From NCBI GenBank assembly GCA_965205975.1, contig OZ242195.1, positions 480,001 through 544,000 of the forward strand: a stretch of 64,000 nucleotides of DNA. Reading direction: 5' to 3'. The position numbers were made by a program, and so were the translations under genes. Of the stretch, positions 19,771 through 46,145 are shown piece by piece. This DNA is from Candidatus Latescibacterota bacterium. GTDB lineage: Bacteria > Latescibacterota > UBA2968. The notes under the pieces are model-generated. The model did no database searches, was not told the DNA's origin, and was given only the letters and a program-made list of their open reading frames with translations. Positions within the stretch are counted from its first letter, which is position 1. The number at the start of each line of letters is the position of its first letter.

Positions 19771-20895
19771 ATGGTTAAGTCGTTCAAATACAGATTGCGT
19801 CCAACCAAAAAGCAAGAACAAATCTTGCTGACGCATATTGGCGAATGTCGTATCCTCTATAATCAACTACTCTGTGCCAGAATACAAGCATGGAAAAATG
19901 AGAATAAGTCTCTGTCTGAATATGACCAGACCAAAACAATACCATTGTTAAAACAGCAACACGCCGCTTTCAAGCAAGTATATAGTCAAGTGTTGCAACA
20001 AGTATCACAGAGAGTAGATTTGGCATTCAAAGGATTCTTTCGGCGTCTCAAAGAGAAGTCAAAGACAGGCGAGAAAGCGGGCTTTCCCAGATACAAGAAT
20101 GAGAATCGCTATGATTCTATCACCTATCCTCAGTTTGCCAATGGATGCCGATTGGACGACAAGGGCTTGCGATTGGGCAGTATTGGTTGCATTCGCATTG
20201 TCCAGCACAGGCCACTTGCGGGTATCCCTAAGTCTTGCACAATCACACGCACAGCAACAGGCAAATGGTTTGTATCTATCTCTTGCGATATTGGCGAAAA
20301 AGATAAGAAACCAAACACTAACTCTGCTGTTGGCATTGACGTGGGTCTCAATTCCTTTGCGGTCACCAGTGACGGAGAGAAAATAGAGAATCAGAGATTC
20401 TTTCGCAAAGAGGAAAAGTCTCTGAAGAGAGCACAGCGCAAATGGGACGCGGTAAAAAAAAGCTCCAAGACCGACCCCACAAGAGAAAAGCGTCGTAAAG
20501 TCATTGCCAAAGTGCATGAGCGTATCCGTAATAAGCGACATAACTTTGCCCACCAAGAATCAAGAAAAATGGTCAATCGTCACAGTTTCATTGCCGTAGA
20601 GAAATTGGACGTGAAAGAGATGCAGAAGAACAGACGGTTGGCTAAATCAATAGCAGACGTAGCATGGTCCCTGTTTCGGCACTGTCTCGAATACAAAGCG
20701 GAAGAAGCTGGTATTGGATTCAAAGCCGTTGATCCTGACTATACGTCACAAGATTGCTCTGCATGCGGACATAGAGAAAAAAAGACACTCTCAGATCGTG
20801 TGCATCATTGCAAGGCGTGTGGCTATAAGACGGACAGAGACCACAATGCTGCGATAAACATATTGACGTTGGGGCTACAACGTCAGGCAGTTTGA
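19771..20895 (+). CDS. tnpB: RNA-guided endonuclease TnpB
   Basis: N-terminal FKYRLRPT HTH, RuvC GIDVG / VEKL / DRDHNAAINI, Zn ribbon CSACG..CKACG. Confidence 0.95.
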   Translation: MVKSFKYRLRPTKKQEQILLTHIGECRILYNQLLCARIQAWKNENKSLSEYDQTKTIPLLKQQHAAFKQVYSQVLQQVSQRVDLAFKGFFRRLKEKSKTGEKAGFPRYKNENRYDSITYPQFANGCRLDDKGLRLGSIGCIRIVQHRPLAGIPKSCTITRTATGKWFVSISCDIGEKDKKPNTNSAVGIDVGLNSFAVTSDGEKIENQRFFRKEEKSLKRAQRKWDAVKKSSKTDPTREKRRKVIAKVHERIRNKRHNFAHQESRKMVNRHSFIAVEKLDVKEMQKNRRLAKSIADVAWSLFRHCLEYKAEEAGIGFKAVDPDYTSQDCSACGHREKKTLSDRVHHCKACGYKTDRDHNAAINILTLGLQRQAV

Positions 20896-21135
20896 CCGCC
20901 AAGAAGCCCAACTGCTCTATCGTTGGGAGTAGTCACATTAGTGATAGAGTTACCCAATTTTGTTTCAAAATGCAAGAGGGCATTTTTATTTAGGGTTTTT
21001 GTTTAAAACAGAAGTCTGCATCTATTCGTCTGTGAACTGCAGGTATGGATTAGGAGTCTTTGGGAGTGTTGAGCGCGGCGAGGTGTATGGAGGTCGGATG
21101 GAGAGTGTATTGGACTTAGCCCTTTAGAAATACAT

Positions 21136-21741
21136 TCAGGCAGAATACAAACTGCTGATTCGATCCATTGTTCTTTTTAAACTTACAGATACAGCAGCAG
21201 CGCGTTCTAAATCCCATTGGTCTCGTACAAATTCGGTAAAACGCGGATTATAGAGAGGGCCTACTTTTGCGGTTGTCGCCCCTTGTATAGGAGCCAATTC
21301 TTGTCTCAATGTTCTTTTTCTACTCTGTCGTGCAAGCGAAACGAGAAACTCTTTGGGTTTTTCTATTTTGTCTGTGTTGTGTGGAATACGATTGAGCGGT
21401 ACCGATAAAAATTTTGCGATGCCTCTGCGGTCCGCCATAATCCAAGATTCGATTTCCATGACCGCAACGCGAAAGAGAAATCCAGAATTTAGAGGTGCTC
21501 CAACCCAGGATTGAATGAGTTTTGGAGGACAATTTTTTGGAGAGTCTAAATCTGTTAGCAGAAAGATATTATAAAATCCTCTGGCAGTACGGTTGAGGTT
21601 ACGGGCCTTTTCTTTTAAGAAAGAATTGCCTTTAGATCCAAGTCTTTGTACAATTTCGAGGTCAAAGTATTCGAGAATTTTAGTCGAAACGGCATCGCTG
21701 AGTGTATCCTCAACAGCGAGGATTACTTTATTTGATCTCAT
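21136..21741 (-). CDS. TOPRIM-fold protein (DUF4276-like)
   Basis: LAVED and LTDLD acidic motifs, EIESWIMAD; ATGA-coupled to the upstream ATPase. Confidence 0.7.
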   Translation of the reverse strand: MRSNKVILAVEDTLSDAVSTKILEYFDLEIVQRLGSKGNSFLKEKARNLNRTARGFYNIFLLTDLDSPKNCPPKLIQSWVGAPLNSGFLFRVAVMEIESWIMADRRGIAKFLSVPLNRIPHNTDKIEKPKEFLVSLARQSRKRTLRQELAPIQGATTAKVGPLYNPRFTEFVRDQWDLERAAAVSVSLKRTMDRISSLYSA

Positions 21742-22892
21742 TCTAAAAAACTCAATTGTTCGGCATGCTCGGGTCTGGTTCTTGGAAGTACGACTTCACT
21801 AACTGTAAAACCATCTTCGAGGAGCGTCTCTACTTCGTCAATATCAGAAACTATTTTTACCGCTGTTCCTTCCCGTGCTGGTGTAAGCAACAGAACTTCT
21901 CGTCCGTCAATGCCCTGTTCTGTAAGCAATGCATCGCTATGTGTGCTCACAAATACCTGGGGGCGTCTGCTTCTTTGCATTCTGGAAATAAACGGGGCAA
22001 GTTGAGAGACAATGCCCGCATTTAATGACAACTCTGGTTCTTCCAGTAAGAGTACAGAGTCACTCTCAAGAAGAGACCATAATAAGCCCAGGAGACGAAG
22101 CGTTCCATCGGAAAATTGATCTTCTCGTTGCAAGCCTGCATTCGGACGCCAGTGGGAATAAAGGGCTTGCAAATGAGGCCTTCCTGTGATTTCATCGCGA
22201 ATAAATTCCAATTGCTTCAGTTGGGGCACAGCAACTTTGAGGGCTTGTTCAATTTTTTTTAACCGGGAACGGCGCGTCCTCTCAGTAACTGTGGCAATTC
22301 TTTCCAAAAACCCTTGTCCAAAGGGATCATCTTCAACGACTCTTCCCTGAATCGAATCGGCAAACCGCAAAAGTTGAGGAACCAGATGCAGATAGGTAAT
22401 GTCTTGCAAGAAATGGACAATATCTCGAAAGTCTGCATTGACATTGATTTGCTCAAGAAAGGTCTGTGTGAGTCGTTGCCGGTCTTTTTTGTCATCTGCA
22501 TCTGGCCTGTTGAGAATCTGTTTGCCATCTTTCCACACGCGTTCATGAGTGAGATACGTCTGGCGATAACCCCGAGGTTCCTGCATAATTCCTATCGCAT
22601 ATCGCCAGGTTTCGGGAGATTCTGCATTGTCGGCAAGGTGAATTTCGATTTCGATTTCTGGGTCTTGTCTCGCCGCCAGGCAACGGATTTTAGATACGCC
22701 TCCGCGGTCTTTGACCGCTTTCTGCAATCCGCCGCCTTCTGCTTTTACAATATCTCGAAGAAAGCGAAAAATATCGAGAAGATTGGACTTCCCGGATGCA
22801 TTTGCACCTACGACAAACTGACGCTCGCGCAATGGGACATCGAGTTCTCGGAAATTACGCCAGTTTTTTACTTTAAGACGTTTGATCATCAT
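21738..22892 (-). CDS. SMC/ABC-type AAA ATPase (AAA_15/AAA_21-like)
   Basis: NWRNF, GANASGKSN, FSDGTLR, LLLEEPE, STHS; GGGAG RBS before ATG 22892. Confidence 0.88.
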   Translation of the reverse strand: MMIKRLKVKNWRNFRELDVPLRERQFVVGANASGKSNLLDIFRFLRDIVKAEGGGLQKAVKDRGGVSKIRCLAARQDPEIEIEIHLADNAESPETWRYAIGIMQEPRGYRQTYLTHERVWKDGKQILNRPDADDKKDRQRLTQTFLEQINVNADFRDIVHFLQDITYLHLVPQLLRFADSIQGRVVEDDPFGQGFLERIATVTERTRRSRLKKIEQALKVAVPQLKQLEFIRDEITGRPHLQALYSHWRPNAGLQREDQFSDGTLRLLGLLWSLLESDSVLLLEEPELSLNAGIVSQLAPFISRMQRSRRPQVFVSTHSDALLTEQGIDGREVLLLTPAREGTAVKIVSDIDEVETLLEDGFTVSEVVLPRTRPEHAEQLSFLE

Positions 22893-23097
22893 AATAACAA
22901 CTCCCATGAAAATCTAAATGGCTCATCCATGGAAACATGATCTTCAGCAGTAGAAATAACAGCATTAATAAACTTATTCGAGATGGGTGTGTTGGGCAAG
23001 CATTTTGTAAGTGCGATGTGTGCGGTATCAGATATTGTGTGTTCACTTTTAATAATGGCATATATTCTCCTGTAAGCAAATCTGTAAAAGAGGAGAT

Positions 23098-30790: not shown

Positions 30791-31609
30791 ATGGCAGATG
30801 CACCACAAACCACAGAAAGAGATTTAGCCCAAGCAGATCAAAGGATTGATCGCCGTTTTGATGAACAGCAACGCGAAACCGTTAGGCAAGGCCAGCAGTT
30901 GACGGCGATTGAAAAACTGATTGAACAGAACAACGAGCACCACAAAGACCGCATGGCGCGTTACGAAGCCGCTCAGGAAAAGATGTTTGAGCGATTGGAG
31001 ACGCGCATTGAGCAGAATGCCACAAGAATCACAGAGAGTAACGAGCATGTGATCAGACTGGACACACTAATAGATCAGCACGACGAGCGCATGAGCCATC
31101 TATCCGAGATCCAACGGGAATTGCGGGCGACGATTGATCAGAACGCCAAAGAAATCACGGAGAGTAATGAGCGAACGACCAGATTGGATACCCTCATAGA
31201 TCAGCATGACGAGCGCATGAGCAGTCAAGCGGAGATCCAGCGAGAATTGCGGGCGACGATTGATCAGAACGCCAAAGAAATCACGGAGAGTAATGAGCGA
31301 ACGACCAGATTGGATACCCTCATAGAGCAGCATGACGAGCGCATGAGCAGTCAAGCGGAGATCCAGCGAGAATTGCATGTGATGATTGATCAGAACGCCA
31401 CAAGAATCACAGAGAGTAAGGAGCATGTGATCAAACTGGACACCCTCATAGAGCAGCACGATGACCGCATGAGCCGTCTATCCGAGATCCAACGGGAATT
31501 GCGAGCGACGATGCAGAGCAATTTCAATTGGATTGTTGGCGTTGTACTCGGAGGGATTTTTCTGATATTGGGCACGCTGGTAACGGCATTTTTCGCTTTG
31601 CCCAAGTAA
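30791..31609 (+). CDS. Coiled-coil tandem-repeat protein with C-terminal TM anchor
   Basis: GAGGAG RBS; four 42-aa repeats; ends WIVGVVLGGIFLILGTLVTAFF. Confidence 0.8.
   Translation: MADAPQTTERDLAQADQRIDRRFDEQQRETVRQGQQLTAIEKLIEQNNEHHKDRMARYEAAQEKMFERLETRIEQNATRITESNEHVIRLDTLIDQHDERMSHLSEIQRELRATIDQNAKEITESNERTTRLDTLIDQHDERMSSQAEIQRELRATIDQNAKEITESNERTTRLDTLIEQHDERMSSQAEIQRELHVMIDQNATRITESKEHVIKLDTLIEQHDDRMSRLSEIQRELRATMQSNFNWIVGVVLGGIFLILGTLVTAFFALPK
31007..31510 (+). repeat. 4 x 126-bp intragenic tandem repeat
   Basis: Units start at 31007, 31133, 31259 and 31385. Confidence 0.9.
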
Positions 31610-34655: not shown

Positions 34656-35845
34656 GTATCAGACTGTGAGGTATTGATGGTGTCGGGTGGGGTACTAATA
34701 GTATCGGGCGTATTAATGGTGTTAGGTTGGAGAGCTTGGAATGATTCAATCGATGATTTTACCTGATTGAACTGGGTGTTGCTTTCCCAGCCGAGGATGG
34801 TTTGCAAAATGCTGCGGCGCCCCACATAAATACGCAAATCAGCGGTAGATCCAAAGCTGAGGGCAATGGGGGTTTGTTTGACGACGACTTCCAGACCAAA
34901 GGTGCGAACATTGCCTTCAATGACGGCATACCCATGAACTTCTGACACTTCGCCCTGACCGACAAAACCTTCGCGGTCAGTGAAGAGATTGCTCAATATT
35001 TCAACGGGTTGGCCGGGGCGCACCTTCCACGCGCTGGTTTCGGCCATCCAGGCACCGATGACTGTACCTTCGCCTTCTCCTGCGATGATCATGACAACGG
35101 CACCCTGACTGGCCTGCATGCCCGGATAGAGATCCTGGCGAGCCACCACGCCACTGACTGGCGCGCGCAAGGTGGCGCGTTCAAGGGCTTCGCGCGCGGC
35201 TTCGAGATTGTGTTTTGCCTTGTCCAGAGACGCCTGGGTTTGGCGCACTGCTGCTTCTGCCTGTTGAATTTCTGCGGGCAGGGGACCGCGTCTCACCAGG
35301 TTGAGATTTTCGAGTTCGACTTTTAAGCTGGCTTCAGCGAGGTCGTAATTGGTTTTGGCGCGTTCGTAGTCTTCCTGACTGAAGAGGCGCTGGCCTTCAT
35401 AGAGAGCCTGGGCGCGTTTGAGGTCCTGTTGTCGGGCCGTGAGGTTGATGCGCGCTTGCTCAACACGCGATTCGGCTATTTTGATTTCTTCGGGGGTTGG
35501 CTGTGCACGCAGCAGGGCAAGTCGCGCCTGTGCAGCTTCGAGGTTGGCCATTTCCCGTTTGATTTCTTGTTCTGCGGTTGCCGCTGCCGCTCTCAAATTG
35601 CCGTCGTAGAGCCGTGCGACGGGTTGATCGACTGTGACGGAGTCACCGGGGCTTACGAGGATTTCCTGGATGTCCTGGCTCATGGGCGAATTGATAAATA
35701 TTTTGTCTCCTGGTTCTACAATGCCTTGAGCCATCACAATATCGTCAATCTGGATCAGTGCAAGGGCGAGTGCAATGGCCCCAATTACACCGAAGACCCA
35801 GAGTAGCCATTTGACAATTCTGCCTTTTCGGCGACGGCGCATCAT
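34640..35845 (-). CDS. HlyD-family membrane fusion/periplasmic adaptor protein
   Basis: N-terminal TM, VSPGDSV, long coiled coil, LRAPVSGVV. Confidence 0.85.
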   Translation of the reverse strand: MMRRRRKGRIVKWLLWVFGVIGAIALALALIQIDDIVMAQGIVEPGDKIFINSPMSQDIQEILVSPGDSVTVDQPVARLYDGNLRAAAATAEQEIKREMANLEAAQARLALLRAQPTPEEIKIAESRVEQARINLTARQQDLKRAQALYEGQRLFSQEDYERAKTNYDLAEASLKVELENLNLVRRGPLPAEIQQAEAAVRQTQASLDKAKHNLEAAREALERATLRAPVSGVVARQDLYPGMQASQGAVVMIIAGEGEGTVIGAWMAETSAWKVRPGQPVEILSNLFTDREGFVGQGEVSEVHGYAVIEGNVRTFGLEVVVKQTPIALSFGSTADLRIYVGRRSILQTILGWESNTQFNQVKSSIESFQALQPNTINTPDTISTPPDTINTSQSDTISNQ

Positions 35846-35867
35846 GGGATTATTTTTTTCCTTTTGC

Positions 35868-35895
35868 TTGACAGATTTTGGGAGAATGGTATATT
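35868..35895 (+). promoter_or_regulatory. tRNA promoter
   Basis: TTGACA at 35868 and TG-extended TATATT at 35890. Confidence 0.55.
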
Positions 35896-35922
35896 TTATA
35901 ATTCTATACCAAAATCCTGGAT

Positions 35923-35995
35923 GGGCGCGTAGCTCAGGCGGTAGAGCAACGGCCTTTTAAGCCGTGGGTCGCAGGTTCGAATCCTGCCGCGCTCA
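35923..35995 (+). tRNA. tRNA-Lys (anticodon UUU); CCA not encoded
   Basis: GGGCGCG/CGCGCTC acceptor stem, TAGCTCAG..GGTAGAGC D-arm, ACGGC-CTTTTAA-GCCGT anticodon arm, GGTTCGAATCC T-arm. Confidence 0.96.
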
Positions 35996-36008
35996 CTATT
36001 ACAAAATG

Positions 36009-36040
36009 GCCCTGAATCACTATGATTTCAGGGCTTTTTT
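36009..36040 (+). terminator. Intrinsic terminator after tRNA
   Basis: GCCCTGAA...TTCAGGGC followed by a T run. Confidence 0.8.
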
Positions 36041-36150
36041 CGCGCCCCTTGCGAGTAAAGATAGTAAACAAATTTATTATATTGTTTTTAAAAGGTCAAG
36101 AAAGTTATAAACAAAAGTTATGATTTAGAACCGCCATACTGCACGGCAAC

Positions 36151-36179
36151 TTGACATTACAATGGGTATTAAATATATT
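36151..36179 (+). promoter_or_regulatory. Sigma70-like promoter of cysH
   Basis: TTGACA-17 bp-TATATT. Confidence 0.65.
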
Positions 36180-36206
36180 GTGAATCAACGAACTCAAGAA
36201 TAGGAG

Positions 36207-36953
36207 ATGTTTGTGCTTACCCGAGAAAAATTGAATGCGCAGTCCCTGGCTCTTGAAACGGCGCCTCTGGAAGATATTTTGATCTGGGCATGGGAGACGT
36301 TGGGTTCTCGCGTGGCATTTGGTACTGCTTTTGGTGCCAGCGGCATGGTTTTGCTCGACGTGATGCAAAAGGCCGCGCCACAAATTCCCGTATTTACAAT
36401 TGACACGGGTTTTCTGTTTCCCGAGACCCTGAGCTTGATCGACCGCGTGGAGGCGCGCTATGGAATTGAGATTGAGCGGGTGCATTCTCGCTTGAGTATT
36501 GAAGAGCAAGCGCGTGATTACGGTGACGAACTCTACAAGCGGGATGCCGACCGGTGTTGCTGGTTGCGGAAAGTCGAGCCGTTGCAGCGCAAGTTGTCCC
36601 AGTTGAATGGCTGGATTAATAGCCGCCGGCGAGATCAGAGCGATACCCGCAGCCAAATTTCCATTCTGGAATATTATGAGACAGATGGTCGCGCGTTGCT
36701 CAAATTGAATCCCATGGCACCGTGGACGCGCAAACAGGTCTGGGATTATATTGTCGAACACGATGTGCCCTATAATCCCTTGATGGATCAGGGCTTTGCC
36801 ACGATAGGATGCTGGCCCTGCACAAAAGCTGTGGATGCAGATGCAGACGAACGCGCCGGTCGTTGGGCGGGTTCGGATAAGACAGAATGCGGTATTCACA
36901 CCTTTTTACAGCCTATTGATGCGGCGGTTAATGCCGTGCCTGTTGAATCTTGA
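36207..36953 (+). CDS. cysH: APS/PAPS reductase (Fe-S type)
   Basis: IDTGFLF, CCWLRKVEPL, RRDQ, IGCWPCT, RAGRW, KTECGIH. Confidence 0.95.
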   Translation: MFVLTREKLNAQSLALETAPLEDILIWAWETLGSRVAFGTAFGASGMVLLDVMQKAAPQIPVFTIDTGFLFPETLSLIDRVEARYGIEIERVHSRLSIEEQARDYGDELYKRDADRCCWLRKVEPLQRKLSQLNGWINSRRRDQSDTRSQISILEYYETDGRALLKLNPMAPWTRKQVWDYIVEHDVPYNPLMDQGFATIGCWPCTKAVDADADERAGRWAGSDKTECGIHTFLQPIDAAVNAVPVES

Positions 36954-37108
36954 CATAATGTCGAAAATAGTATTATTTGGATGTAATCGCGGCCCTCTCG
37001 TGGGGTCGTTTTTGGTTTATGCAAAAAAGAAACACCCTTTTCGAGTAAATGATGTTACGCGGCGATGTGATATAAGGCTGTAGGTCAGCAGGTAGCATGG
37101 AGGAAATC

Positions 37109-37696
37109 ATGATAACTGAAAATGAATTGCGACGACGCGCCGATGAGGGATCTCCAGAAGCACAGTATGATCTTGGCTGGCGGTATTCCGCAGGTCATGA
37201 TGTGCAGAAAGATGACGAAGAGGCAGTGAAGTGGCTCCGCAAGGCAGCCGATCAAGGTCATACTAAAAGTCAGAATATCCTTGGTTTGATGTATGCCGTT
37301 GGTCATGGTGTACCGCAAGACGATGTAGAGGCAGCAAAGTGGTTTCGCAAGGCAGCCGATCAAGGACTTGCTCAAGCTCAGCATAGTCTTGGTGTGATGT
37401 ATTATTTTGGAAATGGTGTGCCGCAAGACTGTATGGAGGCAGCAAAGTGGTTTCGCAAGGCAGCCGATCAAGGACTTGCCCAAGCCCAGCACGACCTGGG
37501 CGCAATGTATGTAAATGGAGAGGGGACACCCCAAGACTATGTGGAAGCCCACAGGTGGTGGAACCTCGCCGCGGCACAGGGTAATGAGGAAGCGCGGGAG
37601 AAACGCGATATACTTACCAAAATGTTGACCCCTTCTCAGGTCGCCGATGCCCAGTACCGAGCACGCGAAAAAATGGAAGAGATCCACGATGAATGA
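37109..37696 (+). CDS. Sel1-like repeat protein
   Basis: About four repeats of AQxxLGxMYxxGxGVPQDxxEAAKWFRKAADQG; GGAGG RBS before ATG 37109. Confidence 0.93.
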   Translation: MITENELRRRADEGSPEAQYDLGWRYSAGHDVQKDDEEAVKWLRKAADQGHTKSQNILGLMYAVGHGVPQDDVEAAKWFRKAADQGLAQAQHSLGVMYYFGNGVPQDCMEAAKWFRKAADQGLAQAQHDLGAMYVNGEGTPQDYVEAHRWWNLAAAQGNEEAREKRDILTKMLTPSQVADAQYRAREKMEEIHDE

Positions 37697-38099
37697 AGAA
37701 GAAACATTTGTGGAAGTACTCCAGCAGGAGTTCCTACAAGCTAAAAAAATATACCGGAATCTGGAACAGGTTGTTATTGTCACTACCGAAGATAAGCTCC
37801 GGCTCTGTCTGCATAAATCTATTGACCGTCTCGGCACCAAACGGGAGTGGTGGACACCAGTGGCTCTGTTGGTGACACTCGTTCTTGCACTAACCACGGC
37901 TGAATTCAAAGACCGATTCGCTTTTCCGGCAGCAACTTGGCAGGCATTTTTCTTGCTATTAACATTAGCCTCATTGATCTGGACTTTTGTGGCTATATGG
38001 AAAGCGATCCGAGTCAAAGTATCTGTTGAATCAATCGTATCCGAAATCAAGCAGCAGTCTCCAGAAATAACAGATGTTGAAGTGGGACAGAGAGATTAA
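37689..38099 (+). CDS. Hypothetical 2-TM membrane protein
   Basis: Overlaps the Sel1 gene stop; two hydrophobic helices. Confidence 0.65.
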   Translation: MNEEETFVEVLQQEFLQAKKIYRNLEQVVIVTTEDKLRLCLHKSIDRLGTKREWWTPVALLVTLVLALTTAEFKDRFAFPAATWQAFFLLLTLASLIWTFVAIWKAIRVKVSVESIVSEIKQQSPEITDVEVGQRD

Positions 38100-38159
38100 G
38101 GGCGATTTTTCTACATACTGGGCTTCAGAAAATGCCACAAAGATAGAGGAAAAGCCACA

Positions 38160-38372
38160 ATGTCTGAGATCATATTTGAAGTCAGCGAGGATGAAGTTGA
38201 TGGCGGATACTCCGCCAATGCGCTGGGATATGGCATCCACACCGAGGGCGAAACGCTTGAGGAACTTCGCCAGAATGTCAAAGAAGCTGTAGAGTGCTAC
38301 TTTGATGAAACGATGAAACGCCTTGGATTGATTCGTCTGTACTCAGACAATGTCGTTGTCCGGTGGGGATGA
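38160..38372 (+). CDS. HicB-like antitoxin-fold protein
   Basis: DGGYSA...IHTEGETLEELRQNVKEAV. Confidence 0.7.
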   Translation: MSEIIFEVSEDEVDGGYSANALGYGIHTEGETLEELRQNVKEAVECYFDETMKRLGLIRLYSDNVVVRWG

Positions 38373-38413
38373 GAAGTACCAGAAAGATGAGCAACAGGAA
38401 ATAGGAGTGATTC

Positions 38414-40456
38414 ATGATAGGCAATAGTTACAAAGATAAGAAGGAAGCGGTATTGGACGTGTGTAATCGATATCTATCTTCACGCGGTGATGCCGAGGAT
38501 GGTGTTGATGTAGATTTCCTGAAAGACCGAGTTAAAGCACTGAAGGACAGCCGGTATGTTCTCCTCGTAGCTGGTGAAGTGAAGGCGGGGAAATCTACTT
38601 TTATCAATGCGCTACTCGGAGAGAAAATTTTGCCGACTGATGTCTTTCAGAGTTCGAGTGCTGTCGTCGAGATATGCAAGTCCAAGAAGAAATACGTCAA
38701 GGTTCTCTATGCAGACGGAAAACCTCGGTACGAAGCATTCGAGGATCTGCGAAAGATTGGAGCGATCAAAGATGAATACCGTAGCATTCCGACTACGCTG
38801 ATTGACACCCGTATTGTCGAAGGAAGTATCAAGCCTGGCCATCCGCTTCCCATTGGCGAACTAGAAGCTGAGAGCAAGTTGCGGCTACAAGATGAGAAGG
38901 CACTCATCGAAAAATATGTAAAAAGTCGAACTCTCGCGGACATACCCGAGAAAATTACCTTCGGCTTTCCGCTCAAATACACCTTTGATGGGCTTCGCAT
39001 AGTTGACAGCCCAGGCGTCAGTGCCCGCGGCGGTGTTCAGGGTGTCACCTACGACTATTTCCAGGAAGCAAACGCAGTGCTGTTCATCCATTCGCTTGAA
39101 TCACCTATCGAGAGTAGTTCATTTTACGACTTCATCACTAAGGTCGTGCCTGACCGTACTCGGGAGACGCTGTTCTTGGTCCTCACAAAGAGCGGAGGGA
39201 AGTCAAAAATTGAGATCAATGAAAAGGTCCGCGAGGCACGCCAACGGTACGATAAGGAGTTCGATAAGCATCGAATTCTGCATGTGGATTCCATGCTCAA
39301 AATCGTTTCCGACGAGATTGAGAGCTTCGATTCTGCCGATACCCTCAAGCAATACTACCGTGATCAAAAAGAACAATTCGAGTTAAAATATGAACAGGAC
39401 CAGAGTCAAGAGTGGCGAGATGAGGCGATTAACTTCGATATCAAGCTTAAACTACTAAATGGTGTCCTTGATGATATTGATGGTGATTCTGACTTTGAGG
39501 CCGTCCGATCTGCCCTGCAGGAATCATCTAACTTCGATGAAATGGAACGCGTTATTGATAAGTTCTCAGACCGAGCACCTTTGATTCAACTCACAGAACT
39601 TCTCTTGTCCGTGAAGCACGGATACGGCACACGGGTCGCAAAGCTTAAAGAAAACCTCGCCTTGTGGAACAAACAGAGCAAACACCCGCAGACTTTCGAG
39701 GATGAGATCAGCGAAATTCAAGAACGCTTGAATGAATACCGACACTCGATGAATGAATTTACCGAAGGTGTCACCAGCAAATACACCGGGCGTAATGCCT
39801 TATATCAAAGTTCACTCAAGCAGACCGAAACCGATTATTTTAATCAGATTAATGACGCATCCATGCTTGACGGAGTCAAGAAAGCACTTGCTGACTTTCA
39901 CGACGCGATGAGTGTATTCGCCAATGAGAAAGAGTCAGAAATAAAATCTCTGTTCGAAGACGAGGTGAGACGGTTGGAAGGGCAGTTCAAGACTGAGTAT
40001 TCCATCACTGTACCAACGGTCGATATTTCAGGTATTACAGCCAAGGCAAAAGAAGGGGCGTATCGGGAAAGAGAGGTGCCTAGAGAGCCTAAGGGTTTCT
40101 GGGAATGGACTAAGAAAATAGTCACCTTTGGGATAGCGAAGTTTACCCAGAAGGAGACCATTTATGACTCTCTGGCCCACTTGTCTGCATACAAAAGACT
40201 TGCACATCAGGTTGTAGAAGAGTACAAGGAAAAATTGCCCGGTCTTGTGTCAAGTCTTATTGAAAACTTTAAGACGGATTTCCAGCCATCTCTCAAGCTC
40301 CTTATTGACTCACGTAACAAAGAACTGGAGGACATTAAGACGAGCCAAGCCACAAATGAGGAGATATTGGCGAATATCGATGCGGCAGAGCAGAAAAAAA
40401 AAGACATCGCGGCTCAGGTAGCTTGGATTACCGATATGTTAGGAGATCTCCAATGA
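38414..40456 (+). CDS. Bacterial dynamin-like GTPase
   Basis: G1 GEVKAGKSTFINAL, LPT (G2 region), G3 DSPG, G4-like TKSG, long helical C-terminal part; AGGAG RBS. Confidence 0.88.
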   Translation: MIGNSYKDKKEAVLDVCNRYLSSRGDAEDGVDVDFLKDRVKALKDSRYVLLVAGEVKAGKSTFINALLGEKILPTDVFQSSSAVVEICKSKKKYVKVLYADGKPRYEAFEDLRKIGAIKDEYRSIPTTLIDTRIVEGSIKPGHPLPIGELEAESKLRLQDEKALIEKYVKSRTLADIPEKITFGFPLKYTFDGLRIVDSPGVSARGGVQGVTYDYFQEANAVLFIHSLESPIESSSFYDFITKVVPDRTRETLFLVLTKSGGKSKIEINEKVREARQRYDKEFDKHRILHVDSMLKIVSDEIESFDSADTLKQYYRDQKEQFELKYEQDQSQEWRDEAINFDIKLKLLNGVLDDIDGDSDFEAVRSALQESSNFDEMERVIDKFSDRAPLIQLTELLLSVKHGYGTRVAKLKENLALWNKQSKHPQTFEDEISEIQERLNEYRHSMNEFTEGVTSKYTGRNALYQSSLKQTETDYFNQINDASMLDGVKKALADFHDAMSVFANEKESEIKSLFEDEVRRLEGQFKTEYSITVPTVDISGITAKAKEGAYREREVPREPKGFWEWTKKIVTFGIAKFTQKETIYDSLAHLSAYKRLAHQVVEEYKEKLPGLVSSLIENFKTDFQPSLKLLIDSRNKELEDIKTSQATNEEILANIDAAEQKKKDIAAQVAWITDMLGDLQ

Positions 40457-41115
40457 AACGCCGAATGAGAGTGCGAATCGAGGGAGATATACGCGAGGAA
40501 TTTGATGAACTGCGCGAGAAACTGAGCCGCCACTTTGAACCTGATACGGATGTTGATCAGGCGCGGCGGATACTCATTGAACACGCGCCTACAATGGTCG
40601 TTGCAAAGGCTCAACTCCTCCTTGATACCTTGTTGAATTACTTGATGGAGGATGCGACGGAGGCATTGACTGATGCCCCAATGACGATTAAGAACGCCTT
40701 TTATGACCTTGACCTTAGAGCTTCTATCAAAGAATCCTTTTCTTTAAAACCTGAATTGCTGGAGTTGTCATTCGACCCGCGGATAATAGCCGGTGGTGTC
40801 GCGGCGGGCTCAACGGCTACAGCAGGCGGACTCATGACCGCATTGTTTCTGAGCGGACTAATCTTCCGAATCATTGGAGGAGTAGCCACCCTTGTCGCCT
40901 CTGCGATTGCCTTTCGAATCGCTCACACAGCCGCAACTGGCACTGCTCTCCAGCGATTGCGGAACGGCTTGGAAGAATACCTGACTCATTCCGAGCAGCA
41001 GATGTCTTCGTGGCTAACAGACATTGAAGAAGACTTCGTCGCAGCCTTCAAGAAGTTCCAGGACGAGGTGGAACGATCAAACGGAGGGAAGTCTGATGGT
41101 TCAGAACCAAGCTGA
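40453..41115 (+). CDS. Helical protein with hydrophobic Gly/Ala hairpin
   Basis: ATGA-coupled to the dynamin; IIAGGVAAG...GLIFRIIGGVATLVASAIAF. Confidence 0.7.
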   Translation: MKRRMRVRIEGDIREEFDELREKLSRHFEPDTDVDQARRILIEHAPTMVVAKAQLLLDTLLNYLMEDATEALTDAPMTIKNAFYDLDLRASIKESFSLKPELLELSFDPRIIAGGVAAGSTATAGGLMTALFLSGLIFRIIGGVATLVASAIAFRIAHTAATGTALQRLRNGLEEYLTHSEQQMSSWLTDIEEDFVAAFKKFQDEVERSNGGKSDGSEPS

Positions 41116-44100
41116 AACTAATATAGAAGATGCTCTGCGTGATCTGCTTCCGTTTATGGAGGCTGCTCACGGCGATGTCCTTGCCCACGTAGAGACAGAT
41201 CTGGATAGGGATAGGCTGATGCGCGGCTCCTATCTCTTCAAGGTTTCCTCTGTGGTCCTTCCCGACGGTGTGGACGACATTCAGGGGTTCATTGAGCAAC
41301 GCTATCGAAGCGTTCTATCTGCAGCACACCGCGCAAACTGGACAGTTCTCACCGCGATTGTTGGTTCGCATTCGGGGGTGTCATTGTACTTGGGCTTCAG
41401 GCCGACACAGACAGATTCGTCTGTCGATCCGGATGTATTCGAACGCATTCTTCAAGGACTGCTGCCGGGACTTGCCCTCGACTTTGAGAAAAACCTGAAA
41501 GTAGAGGCGTTGGTTGGCGGCAAGCGTTTTGGCGGCATGCTCTCGGGAGTGCCCGTATTAAAGATCGATGATGAACGCCAGTACTTTAACTTATCTTCGG
41601 TTGTTCGGAGCCTTCATGGTGAGACATACACTCTGCTATTCGTGTCTCGTCCCGTTCGCGATAACGATCTGTCAAACCAACTGAATGCAGTGTTCGATAT
41701 TCGAGACAAATGCCACACGCTGGCAAGACAAACGTGGACGAAAGAGTCAGGAGAAGGTAAGAATTGGCAAACCAGCCAGACTGAAGGAACGACGGAGACC
41801 GATTCTCGGTTTGTTAAGGCTGCCAGCGGAGCTGTAATTGGCGGAGTTGCCGGAGCAAAGGTCGGAGGTTTGCATGGCGCAGTAATAGGTGCCGGAGTTG
41901 GCGCATCTTTGATTCTGGCCGCATCTGGTCAACGTTCTACATCGAAAGCAGATACTCGGACATATGGTGGTGAGTCGCACTGGAGTGAAAGTCTTTCAGG
42001 AGAACAGCAGGTTACCGTGGCATTGGAATTAGAGCGGATTGCCGAACGGCATACAGATCGACTGATGAAAGCTGCCAACGTTGGTCAATGGGAAACCGCG
42101 ATTACCTTTGCTACAGAGACAGCGGCTGGTCGCGATGTACTAACCGGTGCCCTGCTTGGGGAACTCGCCAAGCCGAGTACAGATGTATATCCGCCGCGCA
42201 TTCATCACGATGACCTAACAAATCAACGCCCGCTCCTTCTCCCCAAATACGACCGTTACAGTGCTGTTTTTCCTAAAAGCCTCGCCTCCTATCTGACCAG
42301 TGAAGAGTTAGCCTCCATCGCCGCGCCGCCATGCGAGAATCTGCCCGGGTATGAGATTCGCCGGACCCCTGCTTTGAGTCTGACGGATATCCGATCCTTC
42401 ACGTCCAGCGAGGGTCGGTCCTTAGGCAATGTCTGCGCCCAGGGTCGTCCACTTGAAGGAGTTGAAGTACGCCTCAGTTCGACCGATCTCGCGAAGCACT
42501 TGTTCGTGTGTGGTCTGACAGGTTCCGGAAAAACCACCACCGTCAAGGAGATACTGGCAGCATTGGATGTCCCTTTCTTGGTTTTGGAGTCGGCGAAGCG
42601 AGACTACCGCCAATTGCTCGGTTGCCCCTCGCTGAAAGGGCCACTGCGTATCTATACACCCGGAGATACTTCGATTGCGCCACTACGATTGAATCCTTTT
42701 CATATCATGCCCGGTGTACCGGCGGGTGTTCATATTGACTATCTCAAGGCGATTTTCAACGCTAGTTTTTCGCTCTATGGTCCTATGCCGTACATCGTTG
42801 AGAAGTGCCTTCACAACATCTATCTAAAGCGTGGTTGGAACTTGACTTCCGGAAAACATCCGCAACTCCTCGACGCTGACGGTCAACCGGACAAACAACG
42901 GTATGACAAGGAAGAGTCGCGATGTTACTTCCCGACCCTTCTTGACCTGCGGGATGAGGTTCAGAAATATGTTCGGTCATTGGATTACAAGGGAGAACTC
43001 TCGGACAATATCAGAACGGCTATCATCACTCGACTGGATAGCCTTGCGGTGGGTGCCAAGGGTCTGCTATTCAACACGTCGAAACCGCTCGACATTGAAG
43101 ATTTGCTGGCGAAACGGACTGTACTCGAGTTGGATGCACTGTCGGACGACGACGATAAGGCATTCGTAGTCGGATTGCTCCTCACGCTCATCAGTGAGTA
43201 CCGGCAAACCAACGACCCTTCCCGTAATCCGTTCGCAAAACCAAGGCACGACCTCCAGCACGACCTCCAGCATGTCCTTGTCATAGAGGAGGCGCACCGC
43301 CTTCTCAAGAATGTTGTGCAGGAACGCCAAACCGAACATCTCGGCAATCCTCGCGGCAAAGCTGTCGAGTTCTTCGCAAATGTGATTTCGGAGATGCGGT
43401 CAATGGGGCAAGGGGTTGCTGTGGTAGAGCAAATTCCTTCGAAACTACTACCCGACGTCATCAAGAATACGAACACGAAAATTGTCCATCGGGTAGTGTC
43501 TCACGATGATCAGGCGCTTCTCGCCTCGACCCTTGGATTGGTAGAACAAGAAGCGATCTATCTCACTTCTCTCCAGACTGGCTACGCGCTCTACGCGACA
43601 GAGGGAATGCAACGACCGATTGAAGTCAAAATCAGGCAGACCCTTTCTCCACGGAAAGTTAGTGACAATCAGGTAATGAAGAAAATGTCTTCAAAGATGG
43701 TCGCAGAAGACGAGGCTAATGTGATGGCAATTCGGCATGCTCTGGGTCCGAAAGGAAATGTCTTGGTCTTGCGATTTCTTTGTACAGTGGCGTGCGGCGA
43801 CTCGTCAGAGTCCTCGGTATATGTGCGCGAAGCCATGGCGCAGTTCAAAGCCCTGCTCCTCAAGCACGACCACAGATTCCCGGAGCCAAGCATCAAGAGA
43901 TTTCTAAGCACAGGCGTTATCGAACTATTGGCGAATGGTCAATTCCGCTTAGCAGACGGCAAGGTGCAGGGTATTGTTCCCTTCATCTCACGTCTCTTAG
44001 ATGGTGATGATCAGGCTGGAGACAGCTTTCGAAAACGATTGGCCCAGGGATGGGGGAAAGATGTGCGGGATGGAGCGATACACCGGATACGCGAACTCGT

Positions 44101-44251
44101 TCTTGACCGAGCATTACGAGGAAGGATTGAGCCCAACGATGCTGATATAAACCGAATCGTGGAAACCTACTTTATTGCGGACATCCCGTCCGTACACGAA
44201 ATTTCAAATCAAGTCTTGAGGCGAATTGGAGGATCGGTATGGATCTCTTAA
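41096..44251 (+). CDS. Large HerA/DUF87 (FtsK-HerA superfamily) ATPase
   Basis: HLFVCGLTGSGKTTT, VLVIEEAHRLL, EMRSMG..VVEQIPSKL, NTNTKIVHR; GGAGG RBS before ATG 41096. Confidence 0.88.
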   Translation: MVQNQAETNIEDALRDLLPFMEAAHGDVLAHVETDLDRDRLMRGSYLFKVSSVVLPDGVDDIQGFIEQRYRSVLSAAHRANWTVLTAIVGSHSGVSLYLGFRPTQTDSSVDPDVFERILQGLLPGLALDFEKNLKVEALVGGKRFGGMLSGVPVLKIDDERQYFNLSSVVRSLHGETYTLLFVSRPVRDNDLSNQLNAVFDIRDKCHTLARQTWTKESGEGKNWQTSQTEGTTETDSRFVKAASGAVIGGVAGAKVGGLHGAVIGAGVGASLILAASGQRSTSKADTRTYGGESHWSESLSGEQQVTVALELERIAERHTDRLMKAANVGQWETAITFATETAAGRDVLTGALLGELAKPSTDVYPPRIHHDDLTNQRPLLLPKYDRYSAVFPKSLASYLTSEELASIAAPPCENLPGYEIRRTPALSLTDIRSFTSSEGRSLGNVCAQGRPLEGVEVRLSSTDLAKHLFVCGLTGSGKTTTVKEILAALDVPFLVLESAKRDYRQLLGCPSLKGPLRIYTPGDTSIAPLRLNPFHIMPGVPAGVHIDYLKAIFNASFSLYGPMPYIVEKCLHNIYLKRGWNLTSGKHPQLLDADGQPDKQRYDKEESRCYFPTLLDLRDEVQKYVRSLDYKGELSDNIRTAIITRLDSLAVGAKGLLFNTSKPLDIEDLLAKRTVLELDALSDDDDKAFVVGLLLTLISEYRQTNDPSRNPFAKPRHDLQHDLQHVLVIEEAHRLLKNVVQERQTEHLGNPRGKAVEFFANVISEMRSMGQGVAVVEQIPSKLLPDVIKNTNTKIVHRVVSHDDQALLASTLGLVEQEAIYLTSLQTGYALYATEGMQRPIEVKIRQTLSPRKVSDNQVMKKMSSKMVAEDEANVMAIRHALGPKGNVLVLRFLCTVACGDSSESSVYVREAMAQFKALLLKHDHRFPEPSIKRFLSTGVIELLANGQFRLADGKVQGIVPFISRLLDGDDQAGDSFRKRLAQGWGKDVRDGAIHRIRELVLDRALRGRIEPNDADINRIVETYFIADIPSVHEISNQVLRRIGGSVWIS

Positions 44252-44784
44252 TCCCTGAGGGTGTTTTGAGACTGGATGCGAGTCTTGAGGCCTCGGCTGA
44301 GGCACGCGAGGCAATCATTGGCGAACAAGGGCTGATCCAACAACTCGATTCAATCAGGTTTGAGTCGACGATAGAGGCTTTAGCTGCACGCAATGAGGCT
44401 GCGCTGAGAGAGAGGCCACAGATTGAGGTCAATCGAATATCCGGTGTTGCACGAGAAGGGATGGTAGATGGCGAATTGGCGCGTGAGTATCCTGCGGAGA
44501 CTGGAAACCGTATTGAGCGTGAGTGTTATTTACGTAACGCTGAGGGGGAGAGCGTTAAGGATCCGGTGACGGGAGAGGCACGCCGAATCGACTTCGCCGT
44601 TATCAAAGATGGTGAGGTCGTAAAGTCAGTTGAGGTGACTTCCGAAACCGCAGACAAGACAGCCCAAATGGCAAAGGAAGAACGTATCCGAGAGGCAGGA
44701 GGAAATTATATCAAGGATCGCCTTACGGGCGGAATGGTTCCCTTTAGTTCCGGCGTGGAGACAGAGATTCTGAGGAGGGCCTGA
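44239..44784 (+). CDS. Putative PD-(D/E)XK restriction-fold nuclease/toxin
   Basis: G..RE helix, then ERE..L, RRIDF, VEVTS and Q..KE pattern; overlaps the ATPase stop. Confidence 0.55.
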   Translation: MDLLIPEGVLRLDASLEASAEAREAIIGEQGLIQQLDSIRFESTIEALAARNEAALRERPQIEVNRISGVAREGMVDGELAREYPAETGNRIERECYLRNAEGESVKDPVTGEARRIDFAVIKDGEVVKSVEVTSETADKTAQMAKEERIREAGGNYIKDRLTGGMVPFSSGVETEILRRA

Positions 44785-45107
44785 TGGGAAATGGAACGAT
44801 ATACGACAAGGTTTCTTGGCACTTTCCGGAAGGGAAAAATTGTCCCAGTCTGGATGCTGCGAAGGTACACTTTGATGTAGTGATGCATTGGCTTAAGTCC
44901 AAAGATTTGCTGTCGGAAGAAGGTTGTGAGGCGATGGAAATCGGTATCGATTCGGACTTTTCGATCACATCCTATATGCTCACCAAAGAGGGCAATCAAC
45001 TCTTGGCGTTGTGCTATACGGAGTGGGCCAATACCGTACAGTATGGCACGCGGCCATCCGAGAGGTTGCTGGAGGATCGCCTGCGGAAAATTGAGAGTGG
45101 TGAATGA
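44784..45107 (+). CDS. Small acidic protein, putative immunity protein
   Basis: TGATG-coupled to the nuclease; YDKVSWH...W...DLL...LTKEGN..Y pattern resembles proteins in polymorphic-toxin immunity positions. Confidence 0.45.
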   Translation: MGNGTIYDKVSWHFPEGKNCPSLDAAKVHFDVVMHWLKSKDLLSEEGCEAMEIGIDSDFSITSYMLTKEGNQLLALCYTEWANTVQYGTRPSERLLEDRLRKIESGE

Positions 45108-45200
45108 AGGCGAATCATTCAAATATGACAGCGATGGCACTATCCTACAAAACGAACACACAATTTGCTCCTACATAATAACAACGGCTAAAGGCCATTT

Positions 45201-46145
45201 ATGCGTAGCAAAAAGCTATCAAAGCGTTCTGGCATCCGACACTCGATTCTCGATGCCATAGGCAATACGCCGATGTTGCGTATCCGGGAATTGGGTGACA
45301 GGATCAATCCCGAGGTTGAAATCTGGGCGAAGTTGGAGATGTTTAACCCGGGCGGATCGGTCAAAGATCGCCCTGCTTTGCAGATGATTGAAGATGCCGA
45401 AAAAGCAGGTGTGCTCACGCCGGAGAAAGTGATTTTGGATTCGACTTCGGGCAATACGGGTATTGCGTATGCCATGATCGGCGCGGCAAAGGGATACCGC
45501 GTCGAGCTGGTCATGCCCGAGAGCGTGAGCATTGAGCGGCGATACGTCATTCAGTCTTATGGATCTGATCTGGTGTTGAGCGATCCCCTTGAAGGCTCAG
45601 ATGGTGCGATTTTGAAATGTCGAGAAATGCTGGCTGCAAATCCCGATTTGTATTACAAGCCCGATCAGTACAATAATCCATCCAATTCCAGGGCGCATTA
45701 TTTGCATACGGCACCGGAAATCTGGTCGCAGACACAGGGGAGGGTGACGCATTTTGTGGCGACGTTGGGCACGAGTGGTACTGTGATGGGTACTGGCAGA
45801 GGTCTGAAGGGATTTAATCCCGATGTGCAAATTATTGCTGTTGAGCCACCCGAATTTCACGGGATTGAGGGGCTGAAAAATATGGATGTGTCCATTGTGC
45901 CGGGTATTTACGATCCATCGGTGTGGGACCAGAAGATACGGATTGAAACGGAAGATGCGTATGATATTGCGCGATGGTTGACGCGAGATATGGGTTTGCT
46001 GGTGGGGCAGTCGTGTGGTGCGGCGATGGCCGCTGCTCTCAAAGTTGCCGAGACTATAGATGAAGGGGTTATCGTCACTTTGTTTCCCGATAGTGGTGAA
46101 AAGTACATGAGTACGCCTCTGTGGCGGCTCGATCCCGTGAGGTAG
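45201..46145 (+). CDS. cysM: PLP-dependent cysteine synthase (CysM-type, sulfur-carrier associated)
   Basis: IGNTP, NPGGSVKDR, STSGNTG, GTSGT; adjacent to JAB and ThiS-like genes; start uncertain. Confidence 0.85.
   Translation: MRSKKLSKRSGIRHSILDAIGNTPMLRIRELGDRINPEVEIWAKLEMFNPGGSVKDRPALQMIEDAEKAGVLTPEKVILDSTSGNTGIAYAMIGAAKGYRVELVMPESVSIERRYVIQSYGSDLVLSDPLEGSDGAILKCREMLAANPDLYYKPDQYNNPSNSRAHYLHTAPEIWSQTQGRVTHFVATLGTSGTVMGTGRGLKGFNPDVQIIAVEPPEFHGIEGLKNMDVSIVPGIYDPSVWDQKIRIETEDAYDIARWLTRDMGLLVGQSCGAAMAAALKVAETIDEGVIVTLFPDSGEKYMSTPLWRLDPVR

Follow-up and report, generated by a model that had tools for sequence, protein, structure and literature searches.

A five-gene operon joins a dynamin-like GTPase, a probable stalk partner and a HerA/VirB4-type ATPase to a predicted polymorphic toxin and immunity protein

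Results

A translationally coupled operon in a Latescibacterota genome

The window analysed here, a stretch of 64,000 nucleotides (nt) from Candidatus Latescibacterota bacterium (assembly GCA_965205975.1, contig OZ242195.1, positions 480,001 to 544,000), carries between 38414 and 45107 an operon in which a bacterial dynamin-like GTPase, a stalk protein and a large ATPase precede a predicted toxin and its immunity protein. An original prediction, made from the letters alone, had proposed here five co-oriented, overlapping genes belonging to no named system. Both claims stood: the five open reading frames lie on the plus strand at the coordinates claimed beforehand, with overlaps of 4, 20, 13 and 1 nt, related loci keep their order across several phyla, and PADLOC, run on the locus to consider a named defence system, returned only weak, generic GTPase and HerA matches. 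Sequence comparison confirms the five coupled genes and shows them keeping company in several phyla. The features are listed below, with sizes in amino acids (aa).

38414-40456, plus strand: gene 1 (P0001), 680 aa, bacterial dynamin-like GTPase
40453-41115, plus strand: gene 2 (P0002), 220 aa, GTPase-less dynamin-stalk protein with a hydrophobic helical hairpin
41096-44251, plus strand: gene 3 (P0003), 1051 aa, large HerA/VirB4-type ATPase with an alpha/beta N-terminal domain, a hairpin insert, the motor and a helical C-terminal domain
41726-42004, plus strand: Ser/Thr-rich hairpin (ATPase residues 211-303) inserted between two helices, proposed barrel-forming stem
42374-43675, plus strand: motor domain of the ATPase, residues about 427-860
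44239-44784, plus strand: gene 4, 181 aa, predicted toxin made of a leader and a tip
44239-44406, plus strand: toxin leader, residues ~1-56, with the motif LDSIRFESTIEALAARN at its end, proposed ATPase recognition tag
44407-44784, plus strand: toxin tip, probably PD-(D/E)xK restriction-endonuclease-like, without a Pfam family
44784-45107, plus strand: gene 5 (P0005), 107 aa, predicted immunity protein for the window's tip, weakly DUF7832-like
37027-45177: accessory block that contains, besides the operon, a Sel1-repeat gene, a gene for a two-helix membrane protein and a short antitoxin-like remnant

The genome is a single 5.56-Mb contig in which the operon is present once. A short-read contig of 7,328 nt equals 37885-45212 with zero differences, which argues against an assembly error; it possibly derives from the window's own sample and so is not independent. 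Genes 2, 4 and 5 matched no Pfam family above cut-off.

Conservation of the core across hosts

We collected 97 ATPase loci: the window itself, 11 from its phylum, five from named genomes and, of 235 metagenome matches, the 80 best. Lachnospira, Oceanirhabdus, Brachyspira and Riflebacteria are among the named hosts, and protein names, seen without gene context, add Vibrio, Tenacibaculum, Ignavibacterium and Myxococcales. In 72 loci the DNA upstream of the ATPase gene extends for 2.9 kb or more. Among these, dynamin, stalk and ATPase are directly adjacent in 59, and a dynamin lies somewhere upstream within the locus in 70, so that the gene order is not due to chance. The remaining 13 comprise four with both genes farther off, two in which a diverged gene of fitting size takes the place of the stalk gene, five with a dynamin and no stalk (one of them with a split dynamin), one without either gene and one that has decayed. 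Presence is patchy (12 of 151 genomes; two other phyla, each sampled, gave 9 of 401 and 9 of 301, and these two counts include distant relatives).

A second, distant subtype was seen among 16 regions from two other phyla and six plasmid regions. It consists of one or two dynamins, usually a small gene, and then ATPase, toxin and partner (L109, L138, L141-L146). Its tips are WHH, LHH, a non-specific endonuclease or, in the two-dynamin locus L146, the window's own tip with its immunity gene; the same tips and immunity families thus recur with the distant two-dynamin core. Two further loci (L113, L114) have ATPase and toxin without a dynamin match. Nine distant ATPases (L110-L112, L135-L137, L139, L140, L147) have no recognised toxin, which suggests that the motor family also serves other modules.

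Several distant loci deserve separate mention. On the Lactococcus cremoris plasmid pB26B (NZ_CP032437.1; L109:1413-10235), a conjugative dairy plasmid and the most tractable host seen, a WYL gene is followed by two dynamins, two small genes, the ATPase, a WHH toxin and its partner. A Streptomyces clavuligerus plasmid (L114:6233-10490) carries a distant ATPase, then an ADP-ribosyltransferase and a small partner, with a 598-aa gene upstream. In L139:383-6619 a related hairpin-bearing ATPase adjoins a GAP1-N2 gene of GTPase-centric conflict systems, a pairing not mentioned in the available text of PMC7159879. Finally, the ATPases of L111, L135, L136, L137 and L140 are each followed by a protein of ~200-240 aa whose start is rich in small residues or hydrophobic, matching no Pfam family, possibly a different class of cargo.

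Toxin tips are exchanged behind a common leader

The gene after the ATPase is co-oriented in 88 loci and complete in 83. By their C-terminal tips, the 83 complete genes fall into LHH (42), WHH/colicin-DNase (23) and window-type (14) clusters and four singles; among 18 toxins scanned, Pfam confirmed six LHH and five WHH representatives. One immunity cluster follows 65 of 65 LHH/WHH tips, and all 11 of its representatives scanned were SUKH, while the P0005 family follows 14 of 14 window-type tips and no other tip among the 83 loci. L001 has a tip paired with PoNi and L059 an HExxH peptidase with a partner of no known family, while the gene in L107 is truncated. No recognisable partner was found in L035 up to the contig end.

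On a tree of 67 non-redundant ATPases, from which 17 loci (tip unclassified or ATPase short) and 13 near-duplicates were left out, the tip label changes at least 17 times by a quick method, the minimum being 5 and the shuffled mean 30.8. Three loci, L045 (WHH), L047 (LHH) and L048 (window type), have ATPases that are 88-92% identical and three different tips. Their DNA remains 85-98% alike up to ~180 nt past the toxin start and is ~50% alike beyond, and the point of divergence lies just past a short motif common to the leaders of all tip classes. When leader profiles from one tip class were compared with the leaders of other classes, 48 of 68, 42 of 59 and 30 of 40 scored above the 99th percentile of shuffles. 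The window's leader is ~21 residues shorter than those of its two nearest relatives; it exceeded this threshold with the WHH profile (9.1 versus 7.7 bits) and fell short of it with the LHH profile (7.0 versus 8.4).

The toxins measure about 160-360 aa, and a hydropathy scan of the toxin found no hydrophobic signal. Tip types beyond nucleases were an HExxH peptidase in one locus and an ADP-ribosyltransferase in a distant one. These comparisons identify genes 4 and 5, at the level of sequence, as a polymorphic toxin and its cognate immunity gene, with a shared leader and swapped tips. The pattern that the original prediction had named as a sign of toxin delivery, a constant dynamin-helical-ATPase core with variable toxin/immunity pairs, is thus the one seen in related loci.

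Three observations concern toxin architecture. In L001:13081-14148 the leader is tandemly duplicated ahead of the PoNi-paired tip. The HExxH peptidase domain that forms the tip in L059:8178-9142 precedes a window-type tip in P0231, and may be a processing domain. Within the window's own toxin gene (44360-44604), contigs in runs X1 and X6 skip ~240 nt from the leader motif onwards, with undetermined letters between, and may represent tip variants in related strains.

The window's predicted toxin and immunity pair

The window's tip belongs to a family of 644 representatives. Of 150 hits listed, 30 of the longest type were scanned, and among these it also ends an RHS/TcdB protein (P0260) and a pretoxin-HINT protein (P0262), which indicates that the tip moves between delivery routes; no match to it was found on phages or plasmids. 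In an alignment of 150 sequences, K140 is conserved in 150, D118, E132 and Q143 in 149 each and E73 in 146, and we regard these five residues as candidates for catalysis. The tip likely adopts a restriction-endonuclease fold. Its nearest named Atlas clusters are Tox-REase-7 (0.88) and Tox-REase-2 (0.87), which fall below 0.9 and are leads only; PDB 2eo0 is matched weakly (E 0.64) with D118 and E132 aligned, one tip homologue matches NERD (E 3e-4), and Thr occupies the position of the canonical Lys.

A complex model of toxin residues 50-181 with the gene 5 product scored 0.89, the best of three controls reaching 0.00. Of 157 solved complexes 116 attained this mark, as did 2 of 215 mismatched pairs, counts that are only roughly applicable to the alignments used. 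Runs share at least 96% of contacts, the partner has a predicted local distance difference test score (pLDDT) of 92, and the modelled interface covers E73, E95, R115, R116, T134, S135, K140 and Q143. The model supports a role for gene 5 in capping the active site of the gene 4 product. A search of the PDB with gene 5 gave nothing below E 0.65; as no solved relative was found, it is unlikely, though possible, that the model recalls a like complex. Conserved tip residues, other toxins ending in the same tip and this complex model uphold the earlier guesses of a nuclease and an immunity protein.

The dynamin-like GTPase and its probable stalk

Gene 1 matches Pfam Dynamin_N above the cut-off (E 6e-18), and its nearest solved relative is BDLP 2j68 (E 4.7e-12, residues 32-106). 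The P-loop, GEVKAGKST, and the DxPG motif are intact; the G2 position is Ser in the window and Thr in 86% of 77 homologues, and the G4 position is non-canonical across the whole family. No strongly hydrophobic segment was found in gene 1 by a hydropathy scan.

Gene 2 had been put forward simply as a membrane partner. It does have a hydrophobic helical hairpin (residues 109-160), and its AlphaFold model, a confident fold with pLDDT 87.6, refines the description to a dynamin stalk: the best fold matches are the MxB stalk (Z 11.1; root-mean-square deviation (rmsd) 3.4, 157 aligned), IniA (Z 10.4), dynamin (Z 9.9) and a Campylobacter dynamin-like protein (DLP; Z 9.2). Proteins of the dynamin family occupy 10 of the top 11 rows among 48,161 chains, with Z values within the range common for helical bundles, and a weak profile match covers BDLP 553-633 (E 0.19). 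Because gene 2 has the hydrophobic hairpin that gene 1 lacks, it is probably the partner of the dynamin and may anchor it to the membrane.

We rejected two other origins for the stalk. A duplicated C-terminal half of the neighbouring dynamin had a probability of 0.5% in profile comparison. An alpha-pore toxin gave Foldseek rows with E 0.03 or worse, template modelling (TM) score 0.2 and rmsd over 30, and the dynamin stalk was preferred. A stalk gene elsewhere in the genome was not found in any of the five genomes searched that lack one in the locus, a search run with no positive control alongside.

A hairpin-bearing ATPase

The description of gene 3 as a giant HerA-type ATPase held, with a hairpin weakly resembling those of beta-pore toxins as an addition. 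The protein matches Pfam DUF87/HerA just over the cut-off (E 6e-5), and Walker A and an EQIP motif are kept in all 66 non-redundant homologues and Walker B in 65 of them. In its AlphaFold model (pLDDT 73.9, predicted template modelling score (pTM) 0.54), the motor domain is closest to the DndH C-domain (Z 31.6; rmsd 3.0, 343 aligned) and VirB4 4ag5 (Z 30.5; rmsd 3.3, 349 aligned), followed by HerA 4d2i (Z 24.2) and EccC (Z 16); Sir2-HerA and HerA-DUF4297 are other fold neighbours. Full-length VirB4/TrwK heads the Foldseek list at an alignment rmsd of 16-20 Å, with TrwK aligned from residue 30 at rmsd 16. NCBIfam models scored far below their cut-offs: CedD (E 4e-20) 72 bits against 600, VirB4_plasma 15.5 against 590 and HerA_antiphage 28 against 800. 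For the N- and C-terminal domains, the fold lists were occupied by motor-domain matches.

In the model, the N-terminal domain extends a helix-strand-hydrophobic tip-strand-helix element, the strands being of low confidence. This hairpin insert is kept in 66 of 66 homologues at lengths of 40-141 aa. It contains 29% Ser+Thr, against 12% elsewhere, with a glycine zipper at the tip of the window's hairpin, and Ser-Thr spacing at i/i+2 exceeds that at i/i+1 in 64 of 66 hairpins. When a profile of 30 hairpin segments was searched against the PDB up to E 10, all seven matches were beta-pore-forming toxins (E 0.017-4.4), including translocating binary-toxin components. Searched against Pfam, the hairpins matched no pore-toxin family, and glycine zippers occur in 2 of 30. 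The length is a multiple of four in 39 of 66, a count that is not relied on, as the rows are related. We propose from these models and profiles that the hairpin may be a barrel-forming stem. The idea that hairpin length tracks envelope type was rejected, as lengths show no difference.

Genomic slot and neighbourhood

The accessory block lies between a PAPS-reductase-like gene (36207-36953) and a cysteine-synthase-like gene (45201-46145), both named from translations, and this slot between two sulfur-metabolism genes is variable. It is empty in related DNA, where contigs of run X1 join 37026 to 45178 and contigs of run X6 join 37021 to 45197. Six same-genus loci with one or both flanks have ATPases 42-52% identical to the window's, with WHH tips and SUKH. 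Two loci (L024, L026) have flanks 90-95% identical to those of the window around an operon that is not; similarity stops at 38141-38343 and resumes at 45170-45185. Together with the empty-slot contigs, they indicate that the slot can hold either of two distant versions of the system, or neither.

We rejected an integrative element at the tRNA-Lys gene (35923-35996), of which the window holds no second copy of the 3' end. Repeats in 35800-45400 are at chance level only, and the window's block contains no duplicated attachment site or integrase. The window's neighbours gave no strong PADLOC hit, and the locus is not in a defence island.

Some neighbouring genes are noted here. Just upstream of the operon lies a short antitoxin-like frame (38160-38372), which is possibly HicB-like; L019, L021 and L026 have similar DNA ahead of the operon. 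The Sel1-repeat gene and the two-helix membrane gene (37097-38099; weak match to PADLOC PDC-M18B, E 9e-4) lie downstream of the operon in L060. Farther off in the window are a 272-aa coiled-coil protein with tandem repeats of ~35 residues and a C-terminal membrane helix (30791-31609), and a region of lower GC content (0.44-0.46; 19771-22907) that holds a TnpB-like, transposase-associated gene as well as an ABC-ATPase gene and its partner, named from translations. In L091:12264-15767 a Cas13a-like gene stands immediately downstream of the operon.

Discussion

A proposed delivery machine for the toxin

Some form of translocation of the toxin across a membrane by the ATPase is, in our judgement, quite probable, because the leader is kept through tip swaps, the toxin has no hydrophobic signal and is too small for entry domains, and the ATPase has a possible channel. 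We tentatively prefer to see the operon as a polymorphic-toxin system that brings its own delivery machine and is most likely directed at neighbouring cells, and give this reading a little less than an even chance. The ATPase would assemble as a ring, like its HerA/VirB4 relatives, bind the toxin leader and strip off the immunity protein. The unfolded nuclease would then be threaded through a beta-barrel built from the ATPase's own Ser/Thr hairpins; binary-toxin pores, which translocate cargo, are the model for such threading. The dynamin and the membrane-anchored stalk would bend or tether the membrane at the injection site. In the weakest step, the receiving compartment would be an adjacent cell, whose DNA would be cut unless the same immunity gene were present. 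The immunity families and the tips shared with other toxins favour such a target.

A number of results weigh against this reading. The loci contain no conserved outer-membrane channel, pilus or wall-spanning gene, and the core occurs in both Gram-positive and Gram-negative hosts. The stalk gene is absent from at least four loci and both dynamin genes from one. The beta-pore matches of the hairpin are individually weak and may stem from its Ser/Thr composition, a hydrophobic-moment test for beta alternation was passed in just 2 of 66 hairpins, and pLDDT is low there in the ATPase model. The hairpin is also short, with a median of 79-84 residues, and not longer in the Bacillota-rich clade; we infer that its length would suffice for one or two bilayers and not for two envelopes. 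Of 82 classifiable tips, 81 are nuclease-type, a range narrower than is usual for antibacterial toxins. No orphan tips or immunity arrays were found in the 97 loci, where at least 1 kb downstream is available in only 53 of 83, or in the window's own genome; the extra matches in the 97-locus search were one decayed primary pair and one unrelated SUKH-like protein. Finally, we scanned 56 of 82 candidate neighbouring genes, leaving out 26 (housekeeping-like, duplicates, short doubtful frames), and WYL regulators lie upstream in 11 of 28 scanned, all in the Bacillota-rich clade; they occur again in three loci of the distant subtype (L109, L138, L142).

Variable toxin/immunity pairs alone do not settle whether the system is offensive or defensive, because several features indicate an intracellular target: the lack of an envelope-spanning part, the short stem, the near-exclusive nucleases, the absence of orphan immunity and the upstream WYL genes all favour an intracellular membrane. 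The same injector may be aimed inward, delivering its nuclease into a membrane compartment of an invader such as the early-infection vesicle of a jumbo phage, an explanation that we hold possible and the less likely of the two. The dynamin pair would find or grip the foreign membrane, the ATPase barrel would pierce it, and the nuclease, freed from its immunity protein only on crossing, would cut the DNA shielded inside. Exchange of tips would be a response to inhibitors or DNA modification on the part of the phage. This removes the problem of topology, as no export route exists among the parts and the stem would need to cross one bilayer only. It also fits the patchy presence in genomes and the match of 12 of the 56 scanned neighbours to defence-type models, a count without a baseline. 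There are precedents in a two-dynamin operon that protects solely against the jumbo phages AR9 and PBS1 (bioRxiv 2022.05.11.491447, available text) and in Dionysus and Juk, which attack the jumbo-phage vesicle with pore-formers (bioRxiv 2025.09.30.679545, available text). However, SUKH and PoNi immunity and tips common to RHS and HINT toxins are marks of cell-to-cell toxins, the window's locus lies outside a defence island with no strong PADLOC hit among its neighbours, one tip is an HExxH peptidase and a distant one an ADP-ribosyltransferase, and the dynamins are not those of Eleos.

Put at its most general, the idea is of a self-contained injector in which a HerA/VirB4-type motor with its own beta-barrel needle, aided by dynamin and stalk, would pump a nuclease tagged by its leader across one bilayer. 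The boldest version is an immune system that would inject borrowed interbacterial toxin-immunity pairs into the jumbo-phage vesicle. We consider this idea speculative and on balance unlikely.

Abortive infection, in which the dynamin would sense membrane damage or a phage protein, the ATPase would unfold or strip the immunity protein and the nuclease would kill the infected cell with no membrane crossed, seems improbable to us. HerA ATPases do partner effectors in defence, as the fold neighbours Sir2-HerA, HerA-DUF4297 and DndH illustrate, and the WYL and defence-type neighbours and the lack of export parts agree with it; but the universal hairpin and its likeness to pore stems would be left unexplained, the leader retained through tip swaps suggests a transport tag, and known HerA defence models score just 18-49 bits. 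A minimal device for DNA transfer or import of the Ced/VirB4 kind, in which the toxin-immunity pair would serve for addiction or exclusion, is very improbable: VirB4 and DndH are the nearest fold matches of the motor, the Foldseek list is headed by full-length VirB4/TrwK, the CedD model matches and the block is mobile, but that CedD score is far below cut-off, the VirB4 alignment has its large rmsd, the loci hold no conserved relaxase, VirB6 or pilin gene, the window's block lacks an integrase or duplicated attachment site, and no full-length close relative of the ATPase was found among 72,556 plasmids.

Either outcome, attack on neighbours or defence, would be new: a three-protein route of toxin delivery common to Gram-positive and Gram-negative bacteria, or a defence system whose nucleases would be brought into the compartments of invaders. 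Bacterial dynamins would gain a concrete, testable partner and output, the toxin family of the window is named along with its immunity family, and a function is suggested for unannotated serine-rich ATPases. The two-dynamin version on the dairy Lactococcus plasmid makes the system readily testable.

Comparison with known systems

The five-gene system was not described in the literature searched, including the available text of PMC10853773, PMC12839542 and PMC7159879, with subscription papers and the neighbourhood supplement of PMC3482391 largely outside the scope of the search. It is not Eleos, a type IV or type VII secretion system or a known HerA defence pair. Type VII secretion (EssC/EccC/YueA, WXG/LXG) likewise places an ATPase of the FtsK/HerA superfamily beside leader-tagged toxins and SUKH immunity. 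Here, however, there is one motor domain in place of three FtsK domains, nearer to VirB4 and DndH (Z 30-32) than to EccC (Z 16), dynamin and stalk stand where the Ess/Esa parts would be, and no WXG100 or LXG Pfam family matched the 18 toxins scanned or the window's proteins. Type IV secretion and Ced differ in that the five-gene core has no VirB6-like, pilin or core-complex partner.

Eleos/LeoABC shares a dynamin-like protein with a second, dynamin-derived partner. In the available text of bioRxiv 2022.05.11.491447, Eleos consists of two GTPases alone, whereas here an ATPase, a toxin and an immunity gene are attached and P0002 has no GTPase; LeoBC matches P0001 at 21.5 bits in the GTPase only (residues 52-227), and homologues at 24-51 bits. 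Juk and Dionysus are pore-forming systems, and the operon may resemble them in having a pore-forming element that acts on a membrane from the cytoplasmic side. The available text of bioRxiv 2025.09.30.679545 includes no HerA, GTPase or immunity protein, while here the pore-like stem would be fused to a motor and the cargo would be a nuclease. HerA defence pairs and the DndH 'HerA/FtsK capture' systems (PMC10853773) have the same motor fold, the DndH C-domain being the top structural match, but no Sir2, DUF4297, DndFG or Orc/Cdc6 partner is present here, and the main text of that paper, as available, mentions no dynamin, SUKH or immunity protein.

The beta-pore stems of C2-II, Vip1, Vip4 and Cry23 are alike in the stem only, a Ser/Thr-rich hairpin with a hydrophobic tip; here the hairpin lies inside a cytoplasmic ATPase in which no receptor-binding domain was recognised. 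NCBIfam ser_rich_anae_1 (NF033849) describes a large ATPase with a serine-rich region and matches residues 225-815 (E 2e-30), but at 104.7 bits against a cut-off of 650 the window's ATPase is a relative rather than a member. Polymorphic toxin systems (PMC3113570, PMC3482391) share a constant N-terminus, swapped nuclease tips (LHH, WHH, restriction-endonuclease fold) and SUKH/PoNi immunity directly downstream. The trafficking core here is none of those described in the available text, 'dynamin' appearing in neither paper, and the toxins here are small and come without orphan cassettes. The cargo logic is of a known kind, and the machine attached to it appears to be new.

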